Source of the DNA: Kribbella antiqua
Lineage (GTDB): Bacteria > Actinomycetota > Actinomycetes > Propionibacteriales > Kribbellaceae
Length of the DNA: 24,000 nt
Direction: 5' to 3'
NCBI RefSeq assembly: GCF_004345665.1
Contig: NZ_SLWR01000015.1
Coordinates: 169,535 to 193,534 of the forward strand
A model generated the notes under the pieces. The model was given only the letters and a program-made list of their open reading frames with translations, was not told the DNA's origin and searched no databases. The translations under genes were made by a program, and so were the position numbers. Shown one piece after another: positions 7,040 to 9,051 of the stretch; positions within the stretch are counted from its first letter, which is position 1, and the number at the start of each line of letters is the position of its first letter.

Positions 7040-7345
7040 CTACCAGGAAGATTTGGTGATGCCGGGGAGTTCGCCGCGGTGGGCCATGGTGCGGAAGCGG
7101 ACGCGGGAGATGCCGGCTTTGCGGAGGTAGCCGCGGGGGCGGCCGTCGGCGACGTCGCGGTTGCGGACGCGGATCGGGCTGGCGTCGCGCGGGAGCTTCT
7201 GGAGCCTGAGTTGTGCCTCGCCGCGGGCCTCGAAGGACGAGCTTGGGTCCGCGATGATCCGCTTCAGTTCGGCCCGGCACTCGGCGTACAACGCCACCGT
7301 CCGCTTGCGCTGCTCGTTCTTCGCGATCTTGCTCGTCTTCGCCAC
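7040..7345 (-). CDS. rpsN: 30S ribosomal protein S14, long Cys-less (zinc-independent, C-) paralog
   Basis: 101 aa: [31 protein letters not shown]...[41 protein letters not shown]. It has the canonical S14 C-terminus and lacks the CxxC pairs of the 61-aa zinc form. It is adjacent to L33, with the L33 stop abutting this start. Confidence 0.95.
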
Positions 7346-7513
7346 TTAGCGCTCTTCGCGGAAGTCGACGTGCTGGCGGATCGACGGGTCGTACTTGCGC
7401 ATCACCAGCCGGTCCGGGTTGTTGCGCCGGTTCTTCCGGGTCACGTAGGTGAACCCGGTCCCCGCCGTACTCCGCAGCTTGACGATCGGGCGGAGGTCGT
7501 TGCGCTTGGCCAT
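7346..7513 (-). CDS. rpmG: 50S ribosomal protein L33, Cys-less (zinc-independent, C-) paralog
   Basis: Last 55 codons of track ORF 7346..7927: [55 protein letters not shown]. No cysteines. Strong RBS GGAAAGGAAAG lies just upstream of ATG 7513. Confidence 0.95.
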
Positions 7514-7580: not shown

Positions 7581-7615
7581 TTCAGAGTGTACGTTGTGCT
7601 GGTTATCGTTTTCAA
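7581..7615. promoter_or_regulatory. Face-to-face divergent promoter pair for rpmG-rpsN (-) and the COG0523-rpmE2 unit (+)
   Basis: + strand: -35 TTCAGA (7581..7586), 17-nt spacer, -10 TATCGT (7604..7609). - strand: -35 TTGAAA (revcomp of 7610..7615), 18-nt spacer, -10 TACACT (revcomp of 7586..7591). Hexamers were matched by eye to TTGACA/TANNNT. No transcription start data. Confidence 0.4.
7600..7614. promoter_or_regulatory. Zur-box-like element TGGTTATCGTTTTCA
   Basis: 11/15 match to the actinobacterial Zur palindrome core TGAAAATCATTTTCA: the right half is near-consensus (GTTTTCA vs ATTTTCA, TTTTCA intact) and the left half is degenerate. This is the only AT-rich patch in the region. It overlaps the + strand -10 and the - strand -35 proposed above. 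The flanking genes (C- ribosomal paralogs, COG0523) are classic Zur regulon members. Confidence 0.5.
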
Positions 7616-7631
7616 TAAGGCAGGAGTGCTG

Positions 7632-8719
7632 ATGCTTCCGGTGACCTTGCTGACGGGTGTCGACGAGCCGTTCCGCGCCGCCGTCGCGGGCAATCTGCTC
7701 GCCGCCGCGGGACCGGGCGGCGTCCTCGTCGAGTACGACGTGAGCGGTCTGACCGGCGGGTCCGTGGTACGGACCGCGCGTACCGCCGGCGGCGTGATCG
7801 ACCGCGACGTGATCCGGATGGGCCATCCCTGCGTCTCCTGCGCGATGCGCGGTTCGCTGGTCGAACTGCTGGTCAGCATCGCCGCAGTCGAGCGGTACGA
7901 CGCCGCGATCGTGTCCGTCCCCGGCAAGGGGACACGCAGGCGCTGGCCGCGGAGATCGCCGGGGAAAGCGACCTAAAAACCGACGCTGTGATCACCACGG
8001 TCGACACCGGCACGATGGTCGACGACCTGACCGGCGACCAGCTGATCCAGGAGCGCGGCGTCCCGACCGCCGCCGAGGACGGCCGGGCCATCGCCGAGGT
8101 GATCGCCCACCAACTAGAGCACGCCCAAGCGATCGTCCTGAGCAGCGACGACGAGGCAGCCCGCGCTCTGGCTCACGCCCTCAATCCACAGGCGCTCGTC
8201 AAGACCACCCCGGCCGGACTGCTCGGCGTACGGCTGCCTGCTCCAGACGCTGAGCCCGGCTCGATTGTCGCGCCGCTGCACGACGACGGCCCGGTGCAGA
8301 CGCTGATCTGGCAGTCCGACCGCCCGTTCCACCCCGAGCGGCTGTACGACGCCCTGGAAGATCTCGTCGCGGGTACGGCGCGCGGCCGCGGAACCGTCTG
8401 GCTGGCGACCCAACCGCAGAACCGGCTCGGCTGGGACAGCTTCGGCACGAACATCGCGATCGGCGTCCTCGGCCGCTGGCTGGCCGACCTCCCGGTCGAG
8501 CGCTGGCCCTCAGTTGGCCAGGCGCATCAGGCCCGGTCGGCGCTGGAGTGGCACCCGGAGTACGGCGACCGGGCGTCGTACCTCTCGATCACCGGAGTCG
8601 GGCTGAACGTCCGGGAATTACGGGACCGCCTGGATGGTTGTGTCCTTCGTGCGGACGAACCGGCCGGGGCACTGACCGATCCGTTCGCCCCTTATCTGGA
8701 AGGAAGTACGGCTGCATGA
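7632..8719 (+). pseudogene. COG0523/CobW-family putative zinc metallochaperone; reading frame broken near 7919..7922 and nucleotide-binding motifs degenerate
   Basis: The N-terminal part (frame of 7632..7976) reads [23 protein letters not shown]...[14 protein letters not shown]...[10 protein letters not shown], then runs into junk ([17 protein letters not shown]). The other frame reads through from about 7922: [36 protein letters not shown]... It continues into a clear CobW_C domain (..[51 protein letters not shown]). AGGAG RBS at 7622..7626. The stop overlaps the rpmE2 ATG (ATGA, 8716..8719). Confidence 0.7.
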
Positions 8720-8961
8720 AGAACGACATCCACCCCGCGTACCGCCCGGTCGTGTTCCGGGACAAGTCCGCGAACTTCAGCTTCCTGACCGGTTCGACGC
8801 GCGAGAGCACCGAGACCATCGACTGGACCGACGGGAACACCTACCCGGTCGTCGACGTCGAGATCTCGTCCGCCAGCCACCCGTTCTACACGGGCCAGCA
8901 GCGCGTGATGGACACCCAGGGCCGAGTCGAGAAGTTCAAGAAGCGCTACGGGCAAAGCTGA
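8716..8961 (+). CDS. rpmE2: 50S ribosomal protein L31 type B (Cys-less, zinc-independent paralog)
   Basis: 81 aa: [81 protein letters not shown]. It has the L31 signature HPFYTG without the CxxC motif. The ATG overlaps the stop of the upstream gene. Confidence 0.95.
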
Positions 8962-8990
8962 CCGCAGCCAGCGGACCTCGGACACGTTGT

Positions 8991-9028
8991 GGGGACCTCG
9001 GACATCTGATCAGATGTCCGAGGTCCCC
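8991..9028 (+). terminator. 38-nt perfect palindrome hairpin downstream of rpmE2 (intrinsic terminator without U tract)
   Basis: GGGGACCTCGGACATCTGA|TCAGATGTCCGAGGTCCCC is perfectly self-complementary and starts 30 nt after the L31 stop. A partial third copy of the arm (GGACCTCGGACAC) lies at 8973..8985. Confidence 0.7.
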
Positions 9029-9051
9029 ATTGCATGTCTGAAGGCCGATCT

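Follow-up and report, generated by a model that had tools for sequence, protein, structure and literature searches.

The question raised by this locus is whether a COG0523-like gene of Kribbella antiqua, which lies among genes for zinc-free ribosomal proteins and has its reading frame broken, has suffered a genuine mutation, and whether its missing GTPase and metal-binding motifs belong to the same damage. The window, by which we mean the whole stretch of 24,000 nucleotides that was analysed, is G000:C15:169535-193534, where G000 is the K. antiqua genome (8.1 Mb, 28 contigs, 67.7% GC). The gene and its surroundings are laid out as follows, in window coordinates.

7040..7345, minus strand: rpsN2, long (zinc-free type) S14 (NF006477, 135 bits)
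7346..7513, minus strand: rpmG2, Cys-less L33, divergent from the Mrf-like gene (PF00471, TIGR01023; no Cys in the translation)
7600..7614, no strand assigned: Zur-box-like operator TGGTTATCGTTTTCA, motif-based, in the promoter region from which rpmG2 and the Mrf-like gene diverge
7622..7626, plus strand: Shine-Dalgarno AGGAG, 5 nt ahead of ATG 7632; GGAG is kept in the orthologues
7632..7925, plus strand: frame A, with the first 98 codons of the Mrf-like gene (N-terminal part), ending in GGC (Gly98), the last codon in register with relatives
7653..7682, plus strand: vestigial Walker A position, residues 8-17, aligned with GFLGAGKTT of a canonical actinobacterial COG0523 protein; no Gly-Lys-Ser/Thr
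7824..7841, plus strand: H65-P-C67-V-S-C70, with CxSC as a variant form of the CxCC metal motif of COG0523 proteins, aligned with HGCVSC in proteins that exceed the NF047431 cut-off
7926..7927, plus strand: lesion, AA in place of an Ala codon GCN in DNA alignments, which shifts the remainder of the gene to the -1 frame
7928..8719, plus strand: remainder of the gene in translated frame B (Gly100 to Ala362 and TGA), with the vestigial switch II and NKxD positions and CobW_C
7974..7976, plus strand: premature stop TAA of frame A, 15 out-of-frame residues past the lesion
8716..8961, plus strand: rpmE2, type B (Cys-less) L31 (NF002462, 138.7 bits; PF01197)

The translations agree with the sequence-only reading, which had described a gene split between two frames. 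Frame A runs from ATG 7632 to the residues DAAIVSVP, after which 17 Arg-rich residues precede the TAA at 7974-7976, so that the predicted product comprises 98 native residues followed by junk, 114 aa in all. Frame B, in the -1 register, is open from upstream of 7772 to the TGA at 8717-8719 and runs into a CobW_C domain, matched by PF07683 at 54-55.5 bits over approximately 8294-8644; the profile search returned no PF02492 match for this frame. The third-position GC of the N-terminal 98 codons is 0.89, and the read-through protein aligns over its full length with intact orthologues at 67-93% identity. The ribosome-binding site, the Zur-like box and the ATGA coupling to rpmE2, which had been described as retained, are all present in the sequence.

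The two open pieces could in principle work as a functional split gene, made of a 114-aa N-terminal zinc-sensing fragment and a C-terminal fragment restarting at GTG 7988. Both pieces are open, and the gene caller recorded the 243-aa piece (P0077); nevertheless, no Shine-Dalgarno sequence precedes GTG 7988, the predicted G-like domain would be cut within its central beta-sheet (strand 91-95, helix 102-110), and no relative is split. We consider this arrangement highly improbable.

The break itself had been assigned to the CCCC run at 7919-7922, and this assignment has to be revised. In DNA alignments with 20 congeners, GTC CCC GGC is in register with the relatives and a single gap falls after 7926; the lesion is thus placed at 7926-7927 rather than in the C run. 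The window reads GGCA-AGGGGAC where the 20 congeners and the closest relative read GGC GCN GGN GAC, encoding P-G-A-G-D. The closest relative, a metagenome contig (L038), has an identical gene order and 93% DNA identity over 2 kb, and in comparison with it the lesion is the sole indel inside the gene. CCG takes the place of the window's CCC in this relative, whose GGGG run matches that of the window in length; a simple shortening of the G run is thereby ruled out. Ala99 does not vary among 43 homologues. On these alignments the lesion is a net loss of one base in the Ala99 codon (GCN to AA, 7926-7927).

Slippage-dependent expression had also been put forward. In such programmed -1 recoding, tRNA-Pro would slip on C CCC G (7919-7923) or a similar site to give a full-length product (..VSVP-RQ-GDTQ..) at low efficiency. 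The CCCC run does exist, and a -1 shift anywhere in 7920-7927 would restore the native length of 362 aa. On the other hand, no X XXY YYZ heptamer is found in frame, the 80 nt downstream are predicted to fold no better than shuffled sequences (z -1.17), no Rfam element was found, and transcriptional slippage would require a run much longer than C4. Every relative has a single ORF, with CCG and CCC varying synonymously at the Pro codon. With heptamer, downstream stimulator and conservation in relatives all missing from this site, the proposal finds no footing, and we regard recoding as very unlikely.

Orthologues were sought by searching 24 other Kribbella genomes with the read-through protein. 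An uninterrupted single frame was found in 22 of them, covering residues 1-362 or 2-362 of the query in proteins of 359-381 aa with 67-83% identity, and the family is under strong purifying selection in these 22 of 24 genomes. The split between frames was found in G000 alone, as compared with the 24 other Kribbella genomes and approximately 120 database homologues. The sequence-only reading had left the choice between a recent pseudogene and a homopolymer error; because the break is unique to G000 among these genomes, pseudogene and sequencing error both stand, and what falls away is the simple homopolymer contraction.

We also note two orthologues, in G012 (L080:1392-2588) and G017 (L081:1304-2497), in each of which some 40 extra residues are inserted in frame near position 175, in the region separating the G-like domain from CobW_C. 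In a further genome, G003, the orthologue is mostly deleted (L079:3231-3449; G003:C7, ~1086730-1086950). The Zur box, the promoter and codons 1-309 are gone, and the 53 remaining C-terminal codons lie between rpmG2 and rpmE2, fused upstream of rpmE2. The S14 gene was not found inside the 6-kb G003 locus.

The missing motifs are a separate matter from the break. No Walker A motif GxxGxGK[ST] is present at its aligned position in the Kribbella protein, as had been observed from the sequence. A canonical actinobacterial COG0523 protein in the alignment has GFLGAGKTT, GCICC, ESSG and NKLD, and the Kribbella protein has SSDD at the position of NKLD. The CxCC metal motif is likewise absent, with CVSC in its place. 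The earlier description of GCICC as replaced by HPCVSCA is correct in that no GCICC occurs; to call the motif lost is too strong, as CxSC keeps two of the three cysteines and the preceding His. An alignment with orthologues, which the sequence-only reading had proposed as a check, gives single ORFs in 22 of the 24 other Kribbella genomes, and P-loop and CxCC are absent there too. The Kribbella orthologues all read L-P-V-T-L-L-T-G-[VL]-D and H-P-C-V-S-C-A. The absence of the P-loop and the presence of H-P-C-x-S-C are invariant in the 22 full-length congeneric orthologues and in 43 database homologues, in which H65, P66, C67, S69 and C70 are themselves invariant. The suggestion of a naturally GTPase-dead family member is thereby borne out.

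Among 20 further actinobacterial homologues, four are canonical and the other 16 combine the absence of a P-loop with a motif of CxxC type (mostly H-x-C-x-S-C); the proteins above the NF047431 cut-off (four genomes, one family) lack the P-loop and have HGCVSC. Strain-specific decay of P-loop and CxCC is ruled out, for these traits are invariant across the genus and common to the MRFs. The alignments thus identify the P-loop loss and HPCVSC as a family trait, not as decay. In genomes of genus g38 (L029-L033; 7.5-9.2 Mb), a P-loop-less subgroup keeps a full CACC and adjoins L31B, L33 and S14 genes. The existence of this CACC-retaining P-loop-less subgroup suggests that loss of the GTPase P-loop preceded the change from CxCC to CxSC.

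The best NCBIfam match of the read-through protein is NF047431 (“ribosome hibernation factor-recruiting GTPase MRF”), at 172.7 bits and E 1.2e-50, which falls short of the curated cut-off of 375 bits for the Mrf equivalog; mycobacterial proteins score 500-567 bits against this model. The tree, a quick LG+G4 inference rooted on canonical COG0523 with 39 P-loop-less and four canonical rows and with long branches flagged, unites all 39 P-loop-less rows, including four MRFs over the cut-off, in a single clade (SH-aLRT 100). Within it, one subclade is made up of the MRFs, and the other contains the Kribbella group and the second Kribbella paralogue described below.

The AlphaFold model of an intact homologue of 93% identity has a mean pLDDT of 74.8, with values >90 over residues 1-130, and its top fold match in the PDB is E. 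coli YjiA (E 2e-12, ~15% identity). A PDB sequence search with a 43-sequence profile gave none at E <= 0.01, and the YjiA link comes from the fold search alone. L31B, L33 and S14 genes flank the MRFs, the CACC subgroup and several other members of the clade.

Four features speak for a place in the broad Rv0106/Mrf-like clade: a COG0523-like fold with CobW_C and without Walker A, Walker B or NKxD; the CxSC motif with its preceding His (H65-P-C67-V-S-C70); grouping with MRFs to the exclusion of canonical COG0523 (SH-aLRT 100); and probable Zur control, judged from the motif, together with linkage to zinc-free L31B, L33 and S14. By its sequence, the gene is a Kribbella member of the Rv0106/Mrf-like P-loop-less COG0523 clade, outside the Mrf equivalog.

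Such proteins have been described in mycobacteria. Rv0106 lacks both GTPase motifs and has CXSC (Haas et al. 2009, PMC2770081). MSMEG_6069/Rv0106, named Mrf, is co-expressed with zinc-free ribosomal proteins under Zur and is required for Mpy binding (Li et al. 2018, PMC6094098). In M. smegmatis Mrf, zinc is bound by C64xxC67 and flanking His; the zinc-bound protein is degraded via ClpS and ClpP1P2, and stabilised Mrf binds 30S (Li et al. 2020, PMC7431043). A COG0523 relative that does without nucleotides and is linked to alternative ribosomal proteins had been expected to be unusual. This is not the case: the three papers describe one for Rv0106/Mrf, and the oddity of the motifs is therefore already known in kind.

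The Kribbella protein resembles Mrf (MSMEG_6069, Rv0106; NF047431) in its two-domain COG0523-like fold, its lack of Walker A, Walker B and NKxD, the CxSC motif with a preceding His in the same alignment columns, the Zur-type box upstream, the adjoining genes for zinc-free L31, L33 and S14, its place in the same P-loop-less tree clade, and a long HPF/pY partner encoded in the Kribbella genome. It differs in scoring 172.7 bits against the cut-off of 375 at ~30% identity, in branching with other non-mycobacterial P-loop-less proteins outside the MRF subclade, in lacking the extra flanking His residues H36, H41 and H81 of M. smegmatis Mrf, and in that the G000 copy is frame-broken. 30S binding and Clp-dependent turnover are properties of Mrf, which the Kribbella protein may share by analogy.

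With the canonical COG0523 zinc metallochaperone GTPases (ZigA, ZagA/YciC, YjiA, ZNG1), the Kribbella protein shares the overall fold, CobW_C and probably Zur regulation. Unlike them, it has GxxGxGK[ST], the ExxG switch and NKxD replaced and CxCC reduced to CxSC, and GTP-driven metal delivery is therefore not expected of it.

The TGGTTATCGTTTTCA box lies within an upstream block, GTGTACnTTGTaCTGGTtATCrTTTTCAAtAA, that is at least 90% conserved in all 22 orthologues aligned, and it is overlapped by a promoter-like TTGAAA-18-TACACT on the minus strand (7615-7586). Related 7-1-7 boxes are located elsewhere in G000 at C9:344101, beside znuA and zur-like genes, and at C6:80242, upstream of the second paralogue. 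From these motifs we infer that the Mrf-like gene is under Zur control. Downstream, the ATG of rpmE2 overlaps the TGA of the Mrf-like gene (ATGA, 8716-8719), and rpmE2 has its own GGAAGGAAG upstream. In the closest relative an ISAzo13-type DDE transposase gene (L038:2721-4397) directly follows rpmE2, at a place where the window has a palindrome and a HAL-like gene. No T-tract terminator was called at this palindrome (window 8976-9044), and a match there to mir-977 is spurious, being a sub-threshold Rfam match of 27.7 vs 109 bits.

The second P-loop-less COG0523-like paralogue is located at G000:C6:79161-80228 on the minus strand. It has 355 aa, the motif DDCGACQ and a shortened CobW_C, and a perfect palindromic Zur box, TGAAAACGGTTTTCA, lies directly upstream (C6:80242-80256; locus L001). 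It is intact in G000 and has an orthologue in every Kribbella genome searched, with 34-37% identity to the window protein. Like the latter it lacks the P-loop, contains CobW_C and follows a Zur box, and it is sister to the window's group (SH-aLRT 92). It differs in its sequence (~37% identity), in having CGAC without a preceding His, in the absence of about 25 residues from the CobW_C region and in having no ribosomal protein genes as neighbours.

G000:C9:340941-345420 is probably the core Zur regulon, with a Fur-family regulator, a znuB-like gene and a gene for a znuA-like lipoprotein. Across the TGACAATCATTTTCA box from the znuA-like gene we observe a gene whose 429-aa product belongs to the YibE/F family of membrane proteins (PF07907, 235 bits) and has a His-rich (HG)5 stretch in its N-terminal part. 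No canonical COG0523 protein with P-loop and CxCC was found in the whole genome G000, whose sole two CobW_C proteins are both P-loop-less; its sole strong PF02492 match is a 259-aa frame of UreG/HypB size (C8:185665-186174). Mpy belongs to the long HPF/pY class, and one long HPF/pY is encoded in G000 (C6:197014; PF02482 and PF16321).

These observations can be assembled into a working model. A COG0523-fold ancestor would have lost all GTPase motifs, and its descendants would retain a zinc site of the form His-x-Cys-x-Ser-Cys. If the Kribbella protein behaves like mycobacterial Mrf, zinc starvation would induce the intact protein under Zur, together with zinc-free L31B, L33 and S14. Binding of zinc at the CxSC/His site would destabilise it; the zinc-free protein would bind 30S and help to load the long HPF/pY homologue onto remodelled ribosomes. 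In G000, a one-base net loss in the Ala99 codon would yield a truncated protein and a very recent loss of function. Downstream rpmE2 retains its own ribosome-binding site, and the second Zur-boxed paralogue is intact.

It remains to weigh whether the lesion exists in the organism. To gauge the quality of the assembly, 400 kb of a congener were compared with G000, which gave 234 ORFs with a G000 orthologue at 65% identity or more. None of these ORFs shows a true frameshift in G000; ten candidates were rejected as stop-to-stop ORF extensions or antisense shadow frames. The G000 assembly is not indel-prone, which counts against the explanation that the organism has an undamaged gene and that the base was lost in sequencing or assembly, with family and putative function unchanged.

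The form of the lesion points the same way. In an invariant codon three bases have given way to two others, and the adjacent G run is as long as that of the closest relative. Since the G run is unchanged and neither remaining base agrees with GCN, an error would imply several miscalls at one spot, or a single miscall coinciding with two substitutions in that codon; a single mutational event accounts for this complex lesion more easily than sequencing error. A genuine loss also has a counterpart elsewhere in the genus, in the natural deletion in G003. For an error speak the short A and G runs that the lesion touches and the strong purifying selection on the family in the 22 of 24 other Kribbella genomes.

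The state of the rest of the gene bears on both explanations. E59D is its sole departure at the columns invariant in 43 homologues (leave-one-out range 0-3). The comparison with the closest relative gives 49.8 synonymous and 29.2 non-synonymous differences, within the range of intact pairs. On the window branch, the C-terminal part has 8.2 non-synonymous to 11.8 synonymous changes, as against 1 to 10 on the sister branch, an excess of non-synonymous change that is non-significant. A long-standing pseudogene is ruled out by the lack of excess change at invariant columns and the non-significance of this excess. As there is no decay besides the lesion, the mutation, if real, is very young. An otherwise pristine gene, with its ribosome-binding site, Zur box, ATGA coupling and, apart from E59D, all invariant residues kept, fits an assembly error equally well. 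We lean, by a modest degree of confidence, to a genuine and very recent loss-of-function frameshift in an Mrf-like family gene of G000, and hold an assembly error to be a serious possibility, though a less probable one.

As a discovery the locus carries little weight, for the motif loss is a published hallmark of Rv0106/Mrf and the break is either a mutation of one strain or an assembly flaw. The gene belongs to a known type and is an unremarkable copy of it, broken or mis-assembled, as well as a new non-equivalog Mrf-like member. For annotation, it matters that pipelines call the P-loop-less members “GTP-binding” or “CobW”, though a P-loop is impossible in them.

Two Kribbella genomes, G000 and G003, offer possible natural cases of loss of function. 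A genuine frameshift together with the independent G003 deletion would mean that Kribbella lineages repeatedly drop the Mrf-like gene and keep the zinc-free ribosomal proteins, a generalisation that we think doubtful. If it were true, either the second Zur-boxed P-loop-less paralogue on C6 took over, or remodelling and hibernation are separable outside mycobacteria; the G000 strain would in that case provide a naturally occurring knock-out in which Mrf-type control of hibernation could be tested in an actinomycete other than a mycobacterium. COG0523 relatives that lack the P-loop and have the CxSC-type motif make up a single clade, found across many actinobacterial families, and their genes usually adjoin those for zinc-free L31, L33 and S14. 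Given this spread and this linkage, Mrf-type hibernation control may not be specific to mycobacteria.
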